Below, piece by piece: positions 1-32,627 of a stretch of 33,237 nucleotides of DNA. Made by a program: the position numbers and the translations under genes. Within the stretch, counting starts at the first letter, position 1. Each line of letters starts with the position of its first letter. A model generated the notes under the pieces. It ran no database searches. It saw only the letters and a list, made by a program, of their open reading frames with translations, and had not been told where the DNA came from. Source of the DNA: a virus. Its lineage: Duplodnaviria; Caudoviricetes. The stretch covers positions 1 through 33,237 of the IMG/VR virus record IMGVR_UViG_3300020045_002248. One strand, 5' to 3'.

Positions 1-1
1 A

Positions 2-373
2 ACCGCCGCCGGGTATCAGCTTGGCACGACCGCCGCCGATCTTGTCGGCTTTCACGACGCCGCTCCCGTTGCGCAGGTAGCCGCCGCCGCGCAAGCTGCT
101 GTGACCGCAGCCAGCACCAACGGGGCTATCGCTGCCGTGACAGTTGTCGCAACATCGACCGATGGTGTTGCCGCCGCCGCATCCGCCGACCTTGCGGCCC
201 TTGCCGCCGAAACCGAAAAGATTGGTGACGACGTTCGCGCCGTCATCGTCGCATTCGGAACGCTTGTGACGGAACTGGAAAAGGCGTCCGACGACGCCCG
301 CGCCTCCATCGTCCTTGCGAACGCCCTGCGTGCCGCCCTTGTCACTAAGGGACTCATCAAGGGTGCCGCCTGA
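2..373 (+). CDS. 5'-truncated Ala-rich phage structural protein (capsid decoration/head-fibre-like) in the GC-rich segment
   Basis: Frame open from base 2 (TAAGYQLGTTAADLVGFHDAAPVAQ...ALRAALVTKGLIKGAA). The GF..A.PV.Q and L..L...GLI motifs resemble phage head-fibre/decoration proteins; GC3-rich codons. Confidence 0.55.
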   Translation, partial: TAAGYQLGTTAADLVGFHDAAPVAQVAAAAQAAVTAASTNGAIAAVTVVATSTDGVAAAASADLAALAAETEKIGDDVRAVIVAFGTLVTELEKASDDARASIVLANALRAALVTKGLIKGAA

Positions 374-603
374 TGAACATCAAGCCCGCTGCAATCGTGT
401 TCACCGACGCCGCTGGCAAGCTTTCCGGAGAAGTGGTCAACCTTGTGGAAGGGCTGGAGAAATTCCGGCGCATCACCCACGGGATTGACCGGACGCCGCC
501 GGGGATCGTGTCCGTTCAAATCCTTTCCGCTCGCGGAATCGAAAAGCGGCACAAGGTAGCAACTCCGGAACCTCCGGCCAAGCCCGCAAAGGCGAAGACC
601 TAA
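373..603 (+). CDS. hypothetical protein (GC-rich segment)
   Basis: ATG overlaps upstream stop (TGATG); GC3-rich codons; followed by a terminator-like hairpin. Confidence 0.6.
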   Translation: MNIKPAAIVFTDAAGKLSGEVVNLVEGLEKFRRITHGIDRTPPGIVSVQILSARGIEKRHKVATPEPPAKPAKAKT

Positions 604-608
604 CCACC

Positions 609-639
609 GGGCGGGCGTCAAACCCCGCCCCTATTTTTT
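609..639 (+). terminator. Rho-independent terminator
   Basis: GGGCGGG (609-615) / CCCGCCC (624-630) stem followed by T-run 634-639. Confidence 0.6.
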
Positions 640-651
640 GCAAGGAACACC

Positions 652-1011
652 ATGGCACAGTCACTTTCATGCGGGGCGTTCGTCGCCAATTCGACGCGCT
701 CCACGTTCTCGGGTTCAAGGGGCTTCACCGTTACCACCGCAGGCGACGGGGCCGCGTCTGAAACCCGTAGCATCGCAACCATCGAAGCGGAATGGACGAT
801 CCCGACCAGCATCGGAAACGTCGGTCTTGTGACCATCCGCAACCTTGACGCCACCAACTACGTTCAGGTCGGATTTGCAACCGGCGTCTATGCCCTGCGC
901 ATCAAGGCCGGGCAGACCGCGCTCTTACCCCTGGAACCCGCAACCGCGTCCCTGTTCCTGCTCGCCAACACCGCCGCCTGCATCGTGGAGCTTGCCGCCT
1001 ACGAGGCGTAA
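652..1011 (+). CDS. hypothetical phage structural protein, beta-rich (GC-rich segment)
   Basis: AAGGA RBS before ATG 652; Thr/Ala/Gly-rich beta-strand pattern (IRNLDATNYVQVG); GC3-rich codons. Confidence 0.65.
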   Translation: MAQSLSCGAFVANSTRSTFSGSRGFTVTTAGDGAASETRSIATIEAEWTIPTSIGNVGLVTIRNLDATNYVQVGFATGVYALRIKAGQTALLPLEPATASLFLLANTAACIVELAAYEA

Positions 1012-9458: not shown

Positions 9459-9795
9459 ATCAACACCGCAAAGTCGAGGCGCGCACGCTGATGAAAAAGA
9501 ATTCATGGCATGGTGCAAAGAGCAGCCTAGCATCGTTTCTGGCGCTTATGGAGTAGAGGTGCATCATTGTGTGGGATCATCCAGAAAAACCTACTTTAAC
9601 AACGAGCGGGTGCATATCGGCCATTGGTTTGTTATCCCGCTTACGCCGGATGAGCATAAGCTATTCCACAATGATAAGTTTGAATTCATCCATCGGCATG
9701 GTGAGCAATCAGAATTATGGCTGAAGCTGGTAGAAAATTATCCGGTCGAAATACCGCTAAAGGTAATTCAGGGAATAGTTAATTATGGGAGATGA
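9448..9795 (+). CDS. DUF968-like HNH-type nuclease-fold protein
   Basis: P.IVSG...VEVHH....HWFVIPLT.DEH..FH pattern; located next to RusA. Confidence 0.55.
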   Translation: MRRKSTPQSRGAHADEKEFMAWCKEQPSIVSGAYGVEVHHCVGSSRKTYFNNERVHIGHWFVIPLTPDEHKLFHNDKFEFIHRHGEQSELWLKLVENYPVEIPLKVIQGIVNYGR

Positions 9796-10150
9796 AATTG
9801 TATTGAATATCAAGCCAATGTCAGTCAATGGAGCATGGCAGGGAAGAAGGTTCAAAACTCCGGCATACAAGACCTACGAGAGTCAAATCCTTTTGATGCT
9901 TCCAAAAATAACGATACCCGAAGGTGATTTGAAGTTGTCTATAGAGTTTGGGTTTAGCAATAAAAACTCTGACTGTAGTAATCCTATTAAGCTTATTGAG
10001 GACATTTTACAAAAGAAATACGAGTTCAACGATAGCCGCGTATATGAGATAAGCGCTCGCAAGGTAATAGTAAAAAAAGGAGAAGAATATATAAAATTCT
10101 CAATTGTTAAAAACGGTAAAGATATTAACGCTAGTTCTGTGAAGTGTTAA
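9785..10150 (+). CDS. rusA: RusA-family Holliday junction resolvase
   Basis: KPMSVN..W, D..NPIK...D.L.....FND..V..I...K catalytic Asp pattern. Confidence 0.85.
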   Translation: MGDEIVLNIKPMSVNGAWQGRRFKTPAYKTYESQILLMLPKITIPEGDLKLSIEFGFSNKNSDCSNPIKLIEDILQKKYEFNDSRVYEISARKVIVKKGEEYIKFSIVKNGKDINASSVKC

Positions 10151-10153
10151 ACT
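10125..10153 (+). promoter_or_regulatory. candidate promoter for the ncRNA island
   Basis: TTAACG (10125-10130)-17 bp-TAAACT (10148-10153) with extended -10 TG; predicted start ~10160 coincides with the first stem. Confidence 0.5.
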
Positions 10154-10159
10154 GAGTTT

Positions 10160-10260
10160 GTTGTGAATGCGTAGGCTGATACGCAACGAAACCAGTGTAG
10201 TGGCTATGTAGGTCTGGAGCACACCAACGCCATGTAATCATAATCAGCGATTACCACAAC
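10160..10260 (+). ncRNA. structured RNA, GGCUGA/AUCAGC kissing-loop motif, copy 1
   Basis: Closing stem GTTGTG/CACAAC; hairpin TGCGTA-GGCTGA-TACGCA; hairpin GTAATC-ATAATCAGC-GATTAC; the two loops are complementary. Confidence 0.7.
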
Positions 10261-10287
10261 ATTGCCCATTAGCAATAGTGGGCATAA

Positions 10288-10363
10288 ACCAGCAGGATAC
10301 TAGGCAATATCTGACCAATCGAAAGATTGCGACGTGCGCGGGTTCGATACCCGCACTGCTGGT
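10288..10363 (+). ncRNA. tRNA-like RNA A (anticodon loop replaced by a GAAA tetraloop; no CCA)
   Basis: Acceptor ACCAGCAG/CTGCTGGT; D-like GATA-CTAGGCAA-TATC; CAATC-GAAA-GATTG; T-arm GCGGG-TTCGATA-CCCGC. Confidence 0.7.
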
Positions 10364-10404
10364 GATTTACGCCAACCCTCTCCGGCGGCAGTAAGCGAGA
10401 GGGA

Positions 10405-10537
10405 TTTGATCTTGGTGTTTGTGATGATGGGGCTGACCATCTACGAGAAAGAGCAGTGCATACGACCCGTTCCTGAATCAGGACTGCACGGGAAGCAATC
10501 AAGAGTTCCAGCGATTGCGGCAAGCACCAAGTTCAAA
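10405..10537 (+). ncRNA. structured RNA, GGCUGA/CAGC kissing-loop motif, copy 2
   Basis: Long closing stem 10405-10422/10520-10537; GATGG-GGCTGA-CCATC; middle CCCGT/ACGGG with TCCTG/CAGGA; GCAATC-...CCAGC-GATTGC. Confidence 0.7.
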
Positions 10538-10565
10538 GAATTAGCCAGTAATGGCACAAAGAATA

Positions 10566-10702
10566 TGGGGAAGCATGGTCTGCACAGTTCCGGCTTTCAA
10601 GTGGGTATCGGGTTGCTCCGAGAGATGCTTGATTTGTCAGGGGTTGATCGCCTTGATATAAAACGGGGTCAACTGTAGGGTTCAATTCCCTATTCTCCAC
10701 CA
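10566..10702 (+). ncRNA. tRNA-like RNA B (acceptor + T-arm + CCA, large insertion instead of an anticodon arm)
   Basis: (T)GGGGAA/TTCTCC(A) followed by CCA; T-arm TAGGG-TTCAATT-CCCTA; internal hairpins 10598-10631 and 10643-10673. Confidence 0.7.
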
Positions 10703-10797
10703 ATTCGCCGAAAGGCAAACAGAGCAGAGCGCATGGGCTTTAGGCTGAGGATTTCAGATAATTTACCATGACAGCCGCATGAAAGGGCGGCAACTAT

Positions 10798-10893
10798 GCT
10801 ATCAGTACTTTCAATTCGGAGATGGTGGGAGAATATCCGCAATTGAGCGGATTGGCTCACGGTTGCGGCTTCAAGAACCGCCTGATAGCTCCA
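10798..10893 (+). ncRNA. tRNA-like RNA C (8-bp acceptor, extended anticodon arm, UCCA end)
   Basis: GCTATCAG/CTGATAGC + T + CCA; weak D-arm with AATTCGG loop; GTGGG/CTCAC stem capped by ATCCGC-AATTGA-GCGGAT; variable GGTT; T-like arm GCGGC-TTCAAGA-ACCGC. Confidence 0.65.
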
Positions 10894-10923
10894 AACTCCC
10901 AGCGCGCATGTTCGCAGTAATCC

Positions 10924-10989
10924 AGATTAACCAAAACCCGTGCAAGCACCTCGCTGCGGCAATCTGGTAAATAAGCATGTAGGGCACGG
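10924..10989 (+). ncRNA. candidate minimal HDV-like (theta-type) ribozyme
   Basis: P1 AGATT-aa-CC/GG-c-AATCT, P2 CCGTGC/GCACGG, P3 GCA/TGC, L3 CCTCGC, GG immediately after P1; nested double-pseudoknot order; several mismatches. Confidence 0.45.
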
Positions 10990-11246
10990 TAGGACTACTA
11001 ACCGCATTGCATCGCCGCCCAAGATGTTGCCTGAACGGGCATTAACTTATCTTTACATTTCTACCTATTGCGGTAATCTCTTACTAATGAGATGATGATC
11101 TCACTGAAGCAATGGTGCGACAGAATGGAAATCGGTGAAGATTATGAAAATTACAAAATTGATTATAATTACAAATACTTCTTACACTAAAGCGCCTTTT
11201 GTTAAGGCAAATGAAATGTTCATGCCTTGGTCAAATTGGTTTTAAT

Positions 11247-12059: not shown

Positions 12060-12479
12060 ATGGCTAAAAAGTTATTCGATTCTGAAAACCAGCCTGAGAA
12101 CAGGGCGCCTCGCGGCAAGTCGTTTAAGACTATGGTAATAGATGCCCTTAAAACTCAGGGCATGAATGAGCAAGAGTTTATCAACAAGCTAGTAGAGCGC
12201 GCCTTAGTCGATGGCGGCGTGTACCTTCAAGAGCTCCTAAAGCGTTACTCCCCCATCCCAAAGCAAACACACGAACCTATCAACATAGACTGGCCAGAGA
12301 AAGGCACGCCTGCGCAAAAGGCAGATGCTGTTCTTAACGCAATGAGCAAAGGCTTAATGAGTCCAGACGTTGGGGCGATATTCATCGAGGCAATCAGCAA
12401 GTCACTCGGGATCGAGGAAGTTACCGAGCTTGCGGCGCGCCTTGAGAAAATTGAGAAGATGCTGGAGGATAAGAAGTGA
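12060..12479 (+). CDS. probable terminase small subunit
   Basis: F....QP...PRG N-terminus, helical body, E.TEL..RLE.IE coiled C-terminus; first gene of the late block. Confidence 0.6.
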   Translation: MAKKLFDSENQPENRAPRGKSFKTMVIDALKTQGMNEQEFINKLVERALVDGGVYLQELLKRYSPIPKQTHEPINIDWPEKGTPAQKADAVLNAMSKGLMSPDVGAIFIEAISKSLGIEEVTELAARLEKIEKMLEDKK

Positions 12480-12625
12480 GCCTATGCCGATACATTCAAT
12501 ACGCACTAAGCCACCCTGACGCCAGCGCAGGATTCTTGATTACATGGATTCCTTACGTTGAGATTGGCGAAGCTAGGAATGCGTACCTTAAAATTATTGA
12601 AGAGCGATTTAGGCAAAATAAATGA
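12476..12625 (+). CDS. small hypothetical protein (49 aa)
   Basis: GGAGG RBS; GTGA and ATGA overlaps with both neighbours. Confidence 0.5.
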   Translation: MSLCRYIQYALSHPDASAGFLITWIPYVEIGEARNAYLKIIEERFRQNK

Positions 12626-12999
12626 GTAAAGTTACTGATATATCAATGTCATTTGCAACAGCTGCAGCGATGACGTCATGGCTTGTTAGTGAGGGGTTTG
12701 TGCAGAAAAAGGACGAAGAAACTGTAACTTCGGCGCTTAAACTTTGCATATCAAATTACGAAAAGGAATTGCTGGCTGACGTAGATGATGCAGTCACGAG
12801 CCTAGAGAATACACTTGCTGGCAAAAAACTAGGCTACGAAGTCCAAAGCTATGGCGTATCGGTGCCCTTTAAGGATGGTGCCAAGCCTGAGTCGTTTTCT
12901 GAAGCTGTTAAGGCTGATTTAACCGGCGCCAATGGCATAGAGGCTCACTTAGCTGCCGTTAAAAAGCACTACCCAGAAAGATTGGATGAAAAGAAATGA
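12622..12999 (+). CDS. hypothetical protein
   Basis: 125-aa ORF coupled by ATGA overlaps. Confidence 0.65.
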   Translation: MSKVTDISMSFATAAAMTSWLVSEGFVQKKDEETVTSALKLCISNYEKELLADVDDAVTSLENTLAGKKLGYEVQSYGVSVPFKDGAKPESFSEAVKADLTGANGIEAHLAAVKKHYPERLDEKK

Positions 13000-13136
13000 T
13001 TAAGCCTAGAATTAAAAAATATGGCAAACGGTGGGAATGTAATGGATTGGTTGGCGCAACGCCTTATGATGCGTATCGGTCTTGGCTTGATAAAACTGAA
13101 TGGCTAGAGAGATTGGGTGTGAGAAATATTGCGTAA
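12996..13136 (+). CDS. small hypothetical protein (46 aa)
   Basis: MIKPRIKKYGKRWEC...GATPYDAY..W; ATGA overlap; ends over the terL start. Confidence 0.55.
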   Translation: MIKPRIKKYGKRWECNGLVGATPYDAYRSWLDKTEWLERLGVRNIA

Positions 13137-14799
13137 GCGCCTAACTGAAGCCGCCATTGCCAACATAGAGCAAAAGGCACAGCAGGCTAATGGTGATAGG
13201 CATTCTACTGTTTTTGGAGTTGTCCATCCTGACGGGACTCTTTTGCGCTCAATTGAGTGCATTGATGGAAGATGGGTGGAGGTTGATAAGCAGCCTACAA
13301 TTTACACCGCAGAAAAGCTTGAGCGAGCAATAACAACAGAAAAAAGGTTCGTAGTAATAATCGGTGGGAGGGGTTCTATGAAGTCGGTCGGAGTGATCGA
13401 CATTATGCTGTCTGGAATAGTTGACAGGGGGGATAAGGTTTATTTTCTCAGGGAGTATCAGGAGTCAATAAGCGATTCTGTGCACGCCCTAAACAAAGAT
13501 GAAATAGATAGGCTTAGTCTTGATGGGTTTACAATACAAGAGAATGCCATTTATCACAGCGGCGGCGGTATAGCTAAGTACAAGGGGCTATCAAGGAATC
13601 CTGCAAGCATAAAGTCTGCAGCCGGATTTCGTCGGTTCATGGTTGAGGAAGCGGCAACCCTTAGTGAAAACTCAATTACACAGTTAACACCTACGGCTAG
13701 GAAAAAGGCTAAGTTTGGCCTTCCAATGGATATAGCAAAGCAGGAGGATGAGGATGATATCTTTTCTGGCGTGCAAATGTTTTTTGTTGCCAACCCAAAT
13801 TCAAGCAGCGATCCATTTAGCGAAAGATTTATAGTCCCGTTTTTAGGTGACATAGAGTCAAATGGATACTATGAGGATGACCTTCACCTCATCATAAAAA
13901 TGAACTACGAGGACAACCCTTGGTATTCTTTGTCCGGTCTTGAGGATGAGCGGAAATTTGATTTTGAAAATAAGTCGAGAGCTAAATATGATCACATTTG
14001 GATGGGGGCATTCTTGGATACAGTACAGAACTCGATCATTGATGCGGCTTGGTTTGATGCGTGTATCGATGCTCACGAAAAATTGGGATGGAAAGCAGAA
14101 GGCCAAGAGAAGATGGCATTCGACCCTGCTGATAGTGGCGATGCTAAGGCGGTCGCTTACCAAGTCGGAACCGTGATCATGGGCGTTAAGCAAACCGAGC
14201 TTGGGGACGTAAATGATGCAACTGACTGGGCTTTGGGTATGTCTGCTAAGCTCAAGCCTGATGTGTTCATTTGGGATGCTACCGGTATTGGATTAAGTCT
14301 CAAGCGACAGATCAATGATGCGCTCAACGGCAAGAAAATTAAGGCTGAGCCGTTTTATAGCTCTGCTGGCACCGTTGACCCAACATATGAGTATGAAGCA
14401 ATCGAAGGAGAGATATGGGAGATAGGCAAGGAGAAAACCAACGGCGACCTATTTGCTAACCTTCGCGCACAAATGTACTGGAAGCTCAGAGACCGGATAT
14501 TCAAAACCTATCTGGCAGTAGAGAAGGGGCGCTACTACTCCCCTGACGAACTTATCTCATTCGGCAGCGGAATCAGTGAGCTAACCGCTCTCCGGTCTGA
14601 GATATGCCGCATACCAAGAAAGATGGGCGTAGCAAGTGGCAAGATACAAATACTCGACAAAGCAGCCATGAAATCACTGGGCATTAAATCGCCAAATATG
14701 GCCGACGCTGTTATGATGTTGCAATTACCCGTAGACGTATTCGGCGGCTACGATGACGATTACGAACCAGTCCGCACAAGCAGCGGGGAGTGGGCATGA
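13129..14799 (+). CDS. terL: terminase large subunit (PBSX/Terminase_3-like)
   Basis: Walker A GGRGSMKS, REYQ.SI..SV, Walker B FMVEEA, NP motif, NY.DNPW, nuclease FDPADSGD and SPNMADA. Confidence 0.93.
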   Translation: MRKRLTEAAIANIEQKAQQANGDRHSTVFGVVHPDGTLLRSIECIDGRWVEVDKQPTIYTAEKLERAITTEKRFVVIIGGRGSMKSVGVIDIMLSGIVDRGDKVYFLREYQESISDSVHALNKDEIDRLSLDGFTIQENAIYHSGGGIAKYKGLSRNPASIKSAAGFRRFMVEEAATLSENSITQLTPTARKKAKFGLPMDIAKQEDEDDIFSGVQMFFVANPNSSSDPFSERFIVPFLGDIESNGYYEDDLHLIIKMNYEDNPWYSLSGLEDERKFDFENKSRAKYDHIWMGAFLDTVQNSIIDAAWFDACIDAHEKLGWKAEGQEKMAFDPADSGDAKAVAYQVGTVIMGVKQTELGDVNDATDWALGMSAKLKPDVFIWDATGIGLSLKRQINDALNGKKIKAEPFYSSAGTVDPTYEYEAIEGEIWEIGKEKTNGDLFANLRAQMYWKLRDRIFKTYLAVEKGRYYSPDELISFGSGISELTALRSEICRIPRKMGVASGKIQILDKAAMKSLGIKSPNMADAVMMLQLPVDVFGGYDDDYEPVRTSSGEWA

Positions 14800-29868: not shown

Positions 29869-29942
29869 TAGAATTACTGGTAGCTGCCATCATATTTGTT
29901 TTTATTTGGGCGCCTGCATGGTGGCCGGAGGATAAGCAATGA
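29865..29942 (+). CDS. 25-aa single-TM peptide
   Basis: MIELLVAAIIFVFIWAPAWWPEDKQ; GGAG RBS; ATGA overlaps with both neighbours. Confidence 0.55.
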   Translation: MIELLVAAIIFVFIWAPAWWPEDKQ

Positions 29943-31795
29943 CCGAACGATTCTATCCGCCATTTGCGCGCTTCTTTACGTCAGATTTAAAGACGCTGCC
30001 CGGTGCGCTGCTGTACTTTTACGAAAACGGCACCACTACACCAAAGATTGTGTATCAGGACGTTGCAAAAACTACGCCTCACGCAAACCCTGTTGTCGCT
30101 GGAACGCTTGGCGCTGGTGCCGACCAATTCCCTGCTATTTTCTTGGATGGCACATACGCTGTAGAGCTTAAAAATGCTGCCGGTGTAACACAAGACGGAT
30201 GGCCTCAGAACAACGTTGGCGGCGAACAAGTAGAAGGGCAATTCGATAGCTACTCATCAATCACCAATTACACCATTGGGCGCATCGTTTCTGGCTCTGA
30301 TGGCCAATTTTATCAGTCGCAGTCTACCCCCAATTTAAACCGCGATCCTGTGCTTATCGCTAATCGCCCAACCTACTGGGTGCAGCTTCACCTTGAGCAA
30401 GAATACGACCCCGGCGCAACCTATGAGATAGGTCAGCAGGTTATTTATTCCGGTCTTGAGTATGTAGCTGTTGCGCAAACTACTGGCAACACCCCTGCAT
30501 CAACTAGTGCATTCTGGAAATTGGCTGCTGAGTTTTTCGCGTGGAATGCGTCAACTACTTACGCAAGCGGCGCGGCTGTTTACGTAGGATACAAAAAATA
30601 CATATCCCAGCAAAACACAAACCTAAACCACACTCCAGCTGATGCTGGTGATACTTGTATTGCTATTCCAAACAGCACGCCGAACGGATGGAATGTTGTT
30701 CATTATCAACGTAAAGACTTAGCCCCTGGCGCTGCTGATACTTCCGCTAGTTCGGTTAATCTGACCGGAACGATTGCAAGTGGTGTAACTGGTGTTACGC
30801 AAAGCCCTGGAGACAACAGCACTAAGATTGCTACTACTGCTTATGCAGATGCAGCTGTCGCTGCTGCAGGCTCTGGCGAATCAATTTTTGATGTTGACGC
30901 CTCTGTCGGGTCCAACGCCTTGACGATCACGATCAATGCGCAATCGATAAAATTTCGCAGCACGACCCTCACTGACGGAACCCCTGTAACTCGCACGATA
31001 GCTAGTCCAATAACGATGACGGTCTCTAGCGGCTCAACGCTTGGGACTATCAGTGGAGTCCAGTCCGATATTCTGATTGTCGCAATTGACAACGCCGGGA
31101 CCGTAGAAGTCGCCTGTATTAACTTTGCTGGCAATACAGACGTTTCTGAAACAGGACTTATCAGCACGACGGCGGAAGGCGGTGCCGGGGCGGCTGACAG
31201 TGCTACTGTCTTTTACTCAACTACCGCTAGATCAGACGTTGCGTATAGAGTTGTCGGACTCATAAGAAGCACACAGGCAACAGCAGGAACGTGGGCGACG
31301 ACTCTGAGCCTTGTTCAGGGGAAGGGCGGCAACTCATCGTTCTTAATGATGAGCGTAGGTTACGGACGAAGCGTCCTATTCACTACGGTTGCGACCACAA
31401 GCGGAACAACTGCCGAATTTACAGGTATCCCGAGTACTGCTAAAAAATTGACACTTATGTTCAATGGGCAGGGTAATGCTACGACTAATGCTGGAAATCG
31501 ATTAATCCAGCTTGGAGATTCTGGTGGCTATGAAACAACAGGATATGCCGGCGAAGATACAAGCGGCTTTAGTTTTGGTGTTGTCGTCCTGCAACCTACA
31601 TATGGGCATATCCAAATCACAAAATTCAGCCCAACAGCAAATACATGGGTTGCATCTGGAAATCTTGTTCAAGGATTCAATTGGGGTGATATCCCTGTTG
31701 CTGGAAGTAAGACACTATCCGCAACTCTGGACAGAATCAGAATCAATAACCCCGAAACCATGAACGCTGGCTCTATCGGCCTCATGGTTGAATGA
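29939..31795 (+). CDS. tail fibre/tailspike
   Basis: Virion-anchor N-terminus (L.G..LYFY..GTTTP...Y.D......NPV); three (W/Y)....Y..G..V....Y repeats; DNSTKIATTAY motif; Thr/Ser/Gly-rich C-terminal domains. Confidence 0.85.
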   Translation: MTERFYPPFARFFTSDLKTLPGALLYFYENGTTTPKIVYQDVAKTTPHANPVVAGTLGAGADQFPAIFLDGTYAVELKNAAGVTQDGWPQNNVGGEQVEGQFDSYSSITNYTIGRIVSGSDGQFYQSQSTPNLNRDPVLIANRPTYWVQLHLEQEYDPGATYEIGQQVIYSGLEYVAVAQTTGNTPASTSAFWKLAAEFFAWNASTTYASGAAVYVGYKKYISQQNTNLNHTPADAGDTCIAIPNSTPNGWNVVHYQRKDLAPGAADTSASSVNLTGTIASGVTGVTQSPGDNSTKIATTAYADAAVAAAGSGESIFDVDASVGSNALTITINAQSIKFRSTTLTDGTPVTRTIASPITMTVSSGSTLGTISGVQSDILIVAIDNAGTVEVACINFAGNTDVSETGLISTTAEGGAGAADSATVFYSTTARSDVAYRVVGLIRSTQATAGTWATTLSLVQGKGGNSSFLMMSVGYGRSVLFTTVATTSGTTAEFTGIPSTAKKLTLMFNGQGNATTNAGNRLIQLGDSGGYETTGYAGEDTSGFSFGVVVLQPTYGHIQITKFSPTANTWVASGNLVQGFNWGDIPVAGSKTLSATLDRIRINNPETMNAGSIGLMVE

Positions 31796-32178
31796 ACCAG
31801 CTTGCCAAGCTCTTGGAAAAGCGCCTTGAAGAAAAAGGCGCAGACGTAAAGGATAACTATCTCCTAATGGCCCCTGATATGGGCGGAGACTTCAAGAGCA
31901 AGAGTCGTTCTGTACGGTTTGGAGAGTTGCTTGGTGAATACGGAAAATACTCAACTAACGAGGGACGTAACTACTACGGATACGCGGGCATGCAGCCATG
32001 GAACATTGACAAGCTAAGACTAGGCGGGGCGTTGGGTTTATACGGCAATTCTAGAGAAATCAACCCGCTTGCAGGGCTTTTAGTTTCGTACCCGATTCAT
32101 AATGGAGAGGCGAGGCTCTTGCTCTCCCCTGGTAAAGACGGCCCAGCTATATTTTTTGGACTGGAGAAGAAGTTTTGA
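31792..32178 (+). CDS. hypothetical protein with beta-barrel-like C-terminus
   Basis: Alternating hydrophobic/Gly strands, ends FFGLEKKF. Confidence 0.55.
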   Translation: MNQLAKLLEKRLEEKGADVKDNYLLMAPDMGGDFKSKSRSVRFGELLGEYGKYSTNEGRNYYGYAGMQPWNIDKLRLGGALGLYGNSREINPLAGLLVSYPIHNGEARLLLSPGKDGPAIFFGLEKKF

Positions 32179-32627
32179 AAGTTGCGCATTTTATCGGAAA
32201 GCACACCAAAGACACGCCAAGCGTCCGTCTCGGGTGGTTCCTGACTCGCCTTGTCCAAAAGGGCAAGTATAAGCAAGTCACCCACTGCGAGGCAATCCTT
32301 GAAGAACACGGGGACGGCAGCGTAACAATCGGATCGTCTAGTCTGCGTGACGGTGGGGTGCGAACAAAGCGCTGCTTCCTGACGCCTGAAAATTGGCTGA
32401 TCATGGATGTGCCTCAGTGGGATTCAGCTAAGGCGGCGGTTTGGTTTGCCGAGCATGACGGCGAGAAATACGACCTACGTGGAGCCTTTGCTAGCTGGCT
32501 TCCTATCTCTTGGAGTGGCTATAACGAGTGGTTCTGCAATGAATCCGTGGCCGCTTCTGTAGGCATCGAGAGCCCGGAGATTTTCGGGCCTGCTCAGTTT
32601 GCGGCCATCTGTTCTAGTCTCAAATGA
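32175..32627 (+). CDS. permuted papain-like (NlpC/P60 superfamily) protein
   Basis: THCE (His) precedes G.KYD..G and WFCNE (Cys); SS.RDGGVR.K. Confidence 0.75.
   Translation: MKVAHFIGKHTKDTPSVRLGWFLTRLVQKGKYKQVTHCEAILEEHGDGSVTIGSSSLRDGGVRTKRCFLTPENWLIMDVPQWDSAKAAVWFAEHDGEKYDLRGAFASWLPISWSGYNEWFCNESVAASVGIESPEIFGPAQFAAICSSLK

Follow-up and report, generated by a model that had tools for sequence, protein, structure and literature searches.

Five tRNA-shaped units without anticodon loops in a phage RNA tract, and their exchange between conserved frames

What would a phage do with tRNA-shaped RNAs that cannot decode? The question is raised by a tract in the genome of a tailed phage (Duplodnaviria; Caudoviricetes), IMG/VR virus record IMGVR_UViG_3300020045_002248, of which the whole stretch of 33,237 nt was analysed (hereafter the window; a linear record of 33 kb, 49% complete). 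Between a RusA-like gene and the terminase, five tRNA-shaped units lie on one strand, and none of them has an anticodon loop. An earlier note, made from the sequence alone, had proposed a polycistronic cassette of tRNA-shaped non-decoding RNAs at this place; its observation is partly confirmed and its interpretation partly supported, as the anatomy and the relatives bear the cassette out, and transcription and processing enter as predicted steps. The five units are the following:

10160..10260, + strand: slot 1, KL1, acceptor stem of 6 bp, D stem of 5 bp, 49-nt payload and T-like stem of 6 bp
10288..10365, + strand: slot 2, unit A, acceptor stem of 8 bp, D arm with GG and canonical T arm
10411..10531, + strand: slot 3, KL2, probably a diverged scaffold, with an 11-bp acceptor stem, loops pairing as GCUG/CAGC and a 53-nt pseudoknotted payload
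10567..10702, + strand: slot 4, unit B, acceptor stem of 6 bp, D stem of 3 bp and canonical T arm
10798..10893, + strand: slot 6, unit C, acceptor stem of 8 bp, U73, CCA, and a 4-bp T stem with a C-A closure

Units A, B and C all stack an acceptor stem on a T arm whose loop is of the TpsiC type; the 7-nt anticodon loop on a 5-bp stem is absent, each unit replacing it differently, as the earlier note had seen. Unit A has a 5-bp stem capped by a GAAA tetraloop where the anticodon loop would be, unit B carries a branched 85-nt arm with a three-way junction in place of the anticodon arm, and in unit C, whose variable region is 4 nt long, the anticodon stem continues through an internal loop into a 6-bp hairpin whose loop has 6 nt. 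A descriptor of T arm plus acceptor, whose tolerances were chosen with A, B and C already known, finds exactly three matches on both strands of the window (10288-10363, 10566-10699 and 10798-10889), none in 500 shuffles of the tract, and five in 48 control loci. Relative to the free minimum, enforcing the cloverleaf costs at most 0.2 kcal/mol for A, 1.5 for B and 2.3 for C, the pair probability being high for the three acceptor stems and low for several inner helices and for the T stem of C. Compared with shuffles, the folding z-score is -3.1 for unit A and -2.8 for the whole tract; B, KL1, the slot-5 element and module D (see below) are singly no more stable than shuffles. ARAGORN and Rfam, the check suggested at the outset, made no calls in the window, and the tract is not a known Rfam family; at E values up to 10, the sole Rfam contact is that of the T arm of A with tmRNA (E 0.13).

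Unit B holds an alanine identity set (G1-C72, G2-C71, G3-U70, A73 and CCA), and its 3' half is 89-93% like that of phage tRNA-Ala genes, one base short. Searched alone by blastn against phages and plasmids, it matched only tRNA-Ala 3' halves, and exact pattern searches for unit A and for the spacer of B gave no match. Copies 98-99% identical to B occur in X1, X2 and X8, where the other slots differ or are unseen.

The two kissing-loop motifs indicated by the earlier note are tRNA-shaped as well, which it had missed. The loops of KL1 pair as GCUGA/UCAGC, and KL1 scores 38.1 bits (E 1.3e-7) with a covariance model of the scaffold, R1; its payload has a relative in L092. KL2 by itself scores weakly (10.8 bits with an E value of 0.35, ranking second among 20), and is tied to the scaffold through a common topology and through a payload that is also carried by the clear members L104, L108 and L111 (51-75 bits) and by L051 (25 bits). 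The pseudoknot of this payload is 97% paired, with two compensatory pairs in five sequences, a weak signal. KL1 is, and KL2 probably is, a member of a widespread phage scaffold in which the D- and T-loops pair and the middle arm is hypervariable.

The KL2 core, found in four of 15 pattern matches, yielded a 22-nt motif by which 120 loci with 104 distinct downstream sequences were fetched, and a second search with both loops left free gave 120 loci and 105 distinct members. Among the 12 variant loop types, 10 keep a Watson-Crick kiss of at least 4 bp (on average 4.33, compared with 2.94 after shuffling, 0/5,000), and the acceptor stem of the 105 members runs 3.5 bp past the pattern, versus 1.1. 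In the scaffold alignment, which for R1 comprises 50 of the 105 members, picked to take in all 41 with variant loops, and in which positions fixed by the pattern cannot vary, 95.6% of cells are paired, 92 are changed on both sides versus 22.5 in shuffles that ignore relatedness, and three of the five kiss pairs are compensated. The proposed loop-loop pairing thus covaries in the family. CCA follows the scaffold stem in 38 of 105 members (12.8 expected); scaffolds share the strand of real tRNAs in 20 cases, with none opposite, and real tRNAs stand beside the scaffold in 11 of 69 loci versus one of 48 controls. The payloads are extremely diverse, 163 of them forming 131 clusters with 112 singletons. 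Stable tetraloops are found in 11 (4.4 expected), T-loop payloads are not enriched (1 versus 0.7), nor are GGA loops of the CsrA type (12 versus 13.5), and a CsrA sponge is not supported on that count. The payload of the L208 scaffold consists of a tRNA D arm and T arm without an anticodon arm, i.e. an elbow inside a tRNA-shaped frame, a form not enriched in the family.

How widespread is this scaffold? Its 5' motif occurs in an estimated 1,400 or so IMG/VR stretches, in 245 phage records including P1, HK620 and mEp460, and in 723 of 5,426 E. coli genomes, without any RNA annotation under it among the matches listed; Rfam, run on 20 of the 120 scaffold loci and on 13 other loci, gave no scaffold match. 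L375, the leader of the ban operon of phage P1, holds two unannotated copies (1499-1605 and 1760-1888; 60.0 and 29.7 bits) between tRNA-Thr and tciA, which overlap or adjoin the opposite-strand plp and upl annotations. One locus that contains the scaffold has been described, namely sRNA-17 of a mEp460-like prophage in E. coli K1 RS218: its primers hold the 5' half of the scaffold, and the locus gives a Northern signal (PMC7719688). mEp460 itself scores 79.3 bits with R1, and on this likeness sRNA-17 is probably an expressed member of the KL1/KL2 family.

A feature that the earlier note had missed is the slot-by-slot exchange of the units. Two close relatives, L118 and L119, were found through a 20-mer of module D, and eight of 23 sequencing runs were covered as well, seven of which gave contigs, in which the replaced segments are known by their length and at most 30 letters. 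The relatives keep the promoter, the spacers (about 10257-10284, 10369-10400, 10538-10563, 10702-10727 and 10774-10801) and module D, and the DNA in between is exchanged, in L118 and in the contigs of the seven runs, between conserved frames of 20-30 nt. These framing elements, with slot 5, are the following:

10125..10153, + strand: predicted sigma-70-type promoter, -35 TTAACG (10125-10130), 17-nt spacer, TG-extended -10 TAAACT (10148-10153)
10263..10284, + strand: spacer hairpin 1, identical in L118, kept in X1, X3, X8, X12 and X13
10376..10403, + strand: spacer hairpin 2, which folds and is kept in X3-8 and X8-15
10544..10555, + strand: GNRA-capped spacer hairpin, the same 13-mer following the tRNA-like unit of L051, kept in X1 and X8
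10707..10727, + strand: spacer with GAAA tetraloop and A-rich linker, identical in L118, kept in X1, X2, X3, X12 and X13
10728..10773, + strand: slot 5, a variable non-tRNA module, 75-77 nt instead in L118, X1, X12 and X13, diverged in X3
10774..10791, + strand: conserved hairpin closing slot 5, a variant of the hairpin that adjoins scaffolds in other loci
10900..11040, + strand: module D, the most conserved element, 3' and multi-helix, 94-98% identical in L118 and L119 and 78% in L245

For example, contig X3-8 (4.9 kb) has 72, 148, 69 and 71 letters where the window has 104, 80, 299 and 92. The interior of slot 1 (KL1) is replaced in L118, X1, X3, X12 and X13, by a short hairpin in the case of L118, where KL2 and B are missing. 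The slot C of L118 is filled by a canonical tRNA-Pro(UGG), and its slot 2 by a 123-nt rod (L118:2790-2912, - strand; z -3.5) that is closed by a terminal stem of 16 bp, contains two distinct T-loop hairpins, and has no Rfam match and no homologue in 375 loci. Other tRNA-like fillers occupy slot C in X1, X3, X6 and X12, and at loose contig ends canonical D or T arms can be seen running into slots 1 and C. The tract is not a plainly decaying tRNA cluster.

The array is accessory in its distribution. No match to the tract was found by blastn against phages (50,697 records) and plasmids; none of 48 RusA relatives holds the tract or the scaffold, in a search whose default filters missed the L051 member and may lose weak members; one of four terS relatives gave a hit, and L050, with a terS 87% identical, is without array. 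L051 and L092 have arrays of their own that share pieces with that of the window. At L051:4280-4360 (+ strand), a tRNA-like unit with an irregular anticodon arm and a U-CCA end precedes the GNRA spacer of window positions 10544-10556; a resemblance to type III antitoxin RNA, considered for the L051 sequence, found no Rfam support and was set aside. In an unrelated phage, L092:1220-2210 (+ strand) comprises three alanine-ended units, one of them like the tRNA-like domain (TLD) of tmRNA, and an expanded tRNA-like unit, and goes on with a scaffold bearing a KL1-type payload, followed by tRNA-Thr and tRNA-Met. Three more phage families (L054 with 16 near-identical loci; L063 with five others; L090 and L095) end in a T arm and CUCCACCA, bear a short branch and are not called as tRNAs, and L063 and L090 have weak, sub-threshold tmRNA scores.

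Is the tract transcribed, and could it be coding? The promoter predicted by the earlier note would start transcription near 10159-10160, i.e. at slot 1. It scores 8/12, below the threshold of a consensus scan; its spacing and pattern are nevertheless kept, as L118 retains the -35 as well as the separation of 27 nt from slot 1, its -10 being TAAGAT, and contig X8-14, in which the -35 and the spacing are likewise retained, has TACAAT at the same position, hence three -10 variants with one spacing, all TG-extended. No + strand terminator was found by consensus scan. Open reading frames (ORFs) at 10334-10678, 10269-10523 and 10779-10970 have no Pfam match, nor has the first of them a PHROG match. 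The reading frame survives slot exchange in only two of eight distinct joints of the relatives and in none of four gaps in L118, which argues against coding and agrees with the view that no convincing ORF is present.

Two structures proposed for the 3' part of the tract did not hold. The slot-5 pseudoknot (10732-10791) was rejected, its loop strand being altered in contig X3-8 and replaced in L118. At window positions 10769-10792, as in L090, L095, L148, L193, L199, L208, L211 and L220, the sequence UGACAG is joined to a GC hairpin with a GAAAG-containing loop, a motif that adjoins scaffolds and tRNA-like units and that may loosely resemble the boxB hairpins of lambdoid phages. The hepatitis delta virus (HDV)-like, or theta, fold of module D shows no compensation in the distant homologue L245, which breaks P1, P2 and P1.1 once each and replaces the proposed L3 loop by UAAG, while in an alternative, non-HDV fold three pairs are compensatory, two of which lie in a hairpin that takes up the proposed P2 strand. 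In the HDV consensus, the catalytic C lies in J4/2, 4-5 nt before P2; in D, the stretch before the proposed P2 strand is AUGUAGG, and this C is absent. As only two independent sequences are compared, the verdict on this fold is unfavourable and not final. Module D is likely a 3' boundary or a separate small RNA. Alone, it gave three chance blastn matches in phages and plasmids, and a 19-mer of it found one true homologue among eight matches in metagenomes and none among six in GTDB genomes; L245 carries D without tRNA-like units upstream.

What, then, could such an array do? The interpretation preferred here, somewhat tentatively and at a little less than an even chance, is that it would yield stable non-decoding RNAs that tie up host proteins reading the top half of tRNAs, above all anti-phage effectors. 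One transcript would start from the conserved promoter, RNase P would cut 5' of the acceptor stems, and RNase E or an exonuclease would trim in the AU-rich linkers flanked by small GC hairpins, the RNase P and RNase E steps being those of general gammaproteobacterial tRNA maturation. The units would be exchanged by short-homology recombination in the conserved frames. Unit B would be alanylated by the host, since G3-U70 is the main alanine determinant (PMC9976931). The top half (acceptor end and elbow) would be what enzymes of the toxSAS, Cas12a3, GNAT or MenT type grip, and in its variable arm each unit would have a second, fast-evolving binding surface. Counter-defence would be the leading function, and is the weakest step of this mechanism. 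An acceptor minihelix, for example, is enough to be modified by FaRel2, which discriminates by four base pairs (PMC11559606), and Cas12a3 binds tRNA-Ala through its T arm, acceptor stem and CCA, and its cleavage persists once the loops are taken away (PMC12851939). A rapidly exchanged array whose units differ in acceptor identity may fit a conflict with such acceptor-reading defences, which we regard as nearly as probable as not. Decoys for anticodon nucleases, as proposed in the earlier note, are in contrast unlikely on anatomy, because the feature that these enzymes read is removed, and because the known phage counter-measures supply resistant decoders.

Several observations weigh against a role in titrating readers of the tRNA top half. 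CCA, which the earlier note took to be retained, is encoded by B and C only (two of five units) and not by A, KL1 or KL2. In KL1 and KL2, the acceptor stack is kept, but a kissing loop stands instead of the TpsiC loop that elbow readers use. The branch of unit B has 11 bp, one short, and unit C meets two of the four FaRel2 determinants (G1-C72 and C2-G71, not 4-69 and 5-68). Moreover, a substrate-like decoy may be turned over by a catalytic toxin and offer poor protection. On the comparative side, A, B and C offer hardly any covariation, the copies of B being near-identical; a variant of A in X8-15 changes a T-stem G-C to U-G and breaks one D-stem pair; the payloads are weakly structured (mean z -0.47) and share no motif; and the relatedness disregarded by the shuffle controls counts here as well. 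Finally, non-canonical T-arm units on the + strand near scaffolds show no clear enrichment (four in 69 loci versus three in 48 controls), so that the all-mimic array is unusual even within the family.

In an alternative reading, unlikely though to be taken seriously, the tRNA shape is a stabilising chassis whose variable arm works as a base-pairing small RNA (sRNA) or a protein aptamer in host physiology or lysogeny, without any relation to tRNA readers. The extreme payload diversity on a fixed frame would be expected, as would one pseudoknotted payload on five different frames, the replacement of the TpsiC loop in the scaffold, and a CCA encoded in only about one third of its members; deletion of sRNA-17, furthermore, alters host gene expression (PMC7719688). 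However, two of the genes under sRNA-17 control are its immediate downstream neighbours in the prophage, and part of this phenotype may therefore be in cis. Within the array, the payload of unit A would be merely a GAAA-capped stem, unit B retains its full alanine identity set, a real tRNA can fill a slot, and the GGA loops that could be read by CsrA-type proteins are not in excess.

Could the array instead tune translation quality control, with alanylated B titrating SmpB, EF-Tu or AlaRS, and uncharged units altering RelA signalling? The alanine identity of unit B and the three alanine-ended units in the similar array of L092 point that way, as does phage DS6A, whose TLD-only RNA is reported to inhibit tmRNA (PMC11915505, PMC4131195). 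This possibility is nonetheless accorded a low probability, as it accounts for one unit of five, and as B has no Rfam tmRNA match and lacks both the DS6A-type D-loop end and the linker before the T stem. Activation of RelA needs tRNA pairing in the A site, which units without an anticodon could not provide. The tRNA shapes may also act in cis, as mitochondrial t-elements do, marking cut sites along a longer transcript and so freeing or stabilising the spacers, module D or the message downstream. Conservation is indeed highest in the spacers and module D rather than in the tRNA-like units, any tRNA-shaped filler would do, and no terminator was found by the scan; but one signal would be enough, and five units with elaborate arms, an alanine identity and conserved payloads exceed this need, while L050, despite its close terS, is without array and L245 has D without upstream tRNA-like units, which makes cut signals very unlikely. 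The slimmest chance goes to a decaying tRNA cluster with recombination boundaries and no RNA function of its own, for which the tRNA-Pro of L118, the missing base of unit B, the scarcity of close homologues and the broken D pair of the A variant could be invoked, but in which one would not expect intact acceptor and T stems in all units, anticodon arms replaced by well-formed structures rather than eroded, compensatory changes in the kiss and stems of the scaffold, a strict strand bias, and a -10 pattern kept by three promoter variants.

The titration of tRNA-end readers thus stays the preferred interpretation; how does the array compare with known systems? Among those compared, only the kissing scaffold itself is matched by membership tests, with KL1 as the clear case. 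The T4 species 1 and 2 RNAs (rnaC and rnaD) are small stable RNAs of unknown function belonging to a tRNA cluster (PMC9697503, PMC12685909). They lie at the end of that cluster (NC_000866 annotation), and rnaC folds with a canonical T arm close to its 3' end, long arms taking the place of the anticodon arm; T4, however, has two such RNAs beside eight real tRNAs, whereas all five units of this array are mimics, none is a real tRNA, and exchange goes slot by slot, and no homology was detected, either by blastn among the 50,697 phage records or by R1 on the T4 region. The TLD-only tmRNA of DS6A resembles unit B in its alanine identity (G3-U70, A73 and CCA are present in B), T arm, lack of anticodon and of tag frame, and phage origin (PMC4131195, PMC11915505). 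It differs by a 7-bp acceptor, a stemless D loop ending in GAC and a short linker before the T stem, compared with the 6-bp acceptor, 3-bp D stem, absence of linker, 85-nt branched arm and multi-unit array of B. The acceptor, D loop and linker of the DS6A type matter for SmpB.

Mukai et al. described polycistrons of irregular tRNAs, some charged but unused in translation, near toxin-antitoxin genes (PMC5389517). Unit C recalls their 8/4 allo-tRNAs, which combine an 8-bp acceptor with a T stem of 4 bp and have G73 or U73 (in C the acceptor has 8 bp, the T stem 4 bp and the C-A closure, and position 73 is U), some of them with U73 and an extra loop; these acidobacterial RNAs nevertheless keep their anticodons and a long variable arm, and C lacks both that arm and the anticodon loop. 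Neither a kissing scaffold nor slot exchange is found in the part of that article available. Similarly, sRNA-17 has been published as a single regulatory sRNA, without the word tRNA in the main text, and it has another payload and no mimic array (PMC7719688). The phage tRNA clusters that counter anticodon nucleases share phage-borne tRNA-shaped genes and a variable region, recalling the tRNA-Pro in slot C of L118, but they supply cleavage-resistant decoders (PMC12851939), and the window units cannot decode. The suggestion that the system is undescribed holds insofar as no description was found in open-licence PMC and bioRxiv, judged by titles and the opening of abstracts, with nothing on it in the available parts of PMC8421152 and PMC13192938; the scaffold locus sRNA-17 is published, and the viral structured-RNA survey PMC10690425, available in part, may hold the scaffold.

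A PHROG scan places the tract in a lambdoid-like order, after an antirepressor, O- and P-like replication genes, ninB, an HslV-like gene, HNH and the RusA-like gene, and before small ORFs, a probable terS, terL, portal and head genes. The genes on both sides are:

9785..10150, + strand: RusA-like gene (Pfam RusA 24.4 bits, PHROG 11573/140), its 3' end overlapping the array promoter
12060..14799, + strand: packaging genes, probable terS at 12060-12479 (PHROG 9747) and terL at 13129-14799 (PHROG 2/3717)

The RusA-like gene is swapped for other genes in L118, where the promoter is retained, and no Q-like gene was found among the scanned window proteins. TerL is 40-47% identical to that of phages of Vibrio, Pseudomonas, Aeromonas and Shewanella, and the host is therefore likely gammaproteobacterial. 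At its left end, the window (1-1000) has a GC content of 62-64%, compared with 38-57% elsewhere, and ORFs without PHROG match, possibly a host junction or a chimeric end. Farther downstream, a 618-aa protein (29939-31795) weakly matches the carbohydrate-binding CBM5/12, and another of 150 aa (32175-32627) matches a PHROG family that is enoyl-CoA hydratase-like.

Since the T4 species 1 and 2 were described, phages have been known to carry tRNA-like RNAs of unknown function, without a comparative handle until now. With modular units, conserved frames and hypervariable cargo, this old question becomes accessible to swaps of frame versus payload, and of identity element versus elbow. It is possible, though on balance doubtful, that proteobacterial phages maintain RNA effectors as a diversifying library, built on a tRNA-shaped chassis matured and stabilised by the host, with interchangeable identities and payloads in promoter-led arrays that recombine in the manner of hotspots for anti-defence proteins, and that this locus, an all-mimic case, is an RNA-only counter-defence cassette directed against attackers of tRNA ends. 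Were the counter-defence reading true, these arrays would represent an RNA-only class of anti-defence factors and, at the same time, a natural RNA display scaffold.

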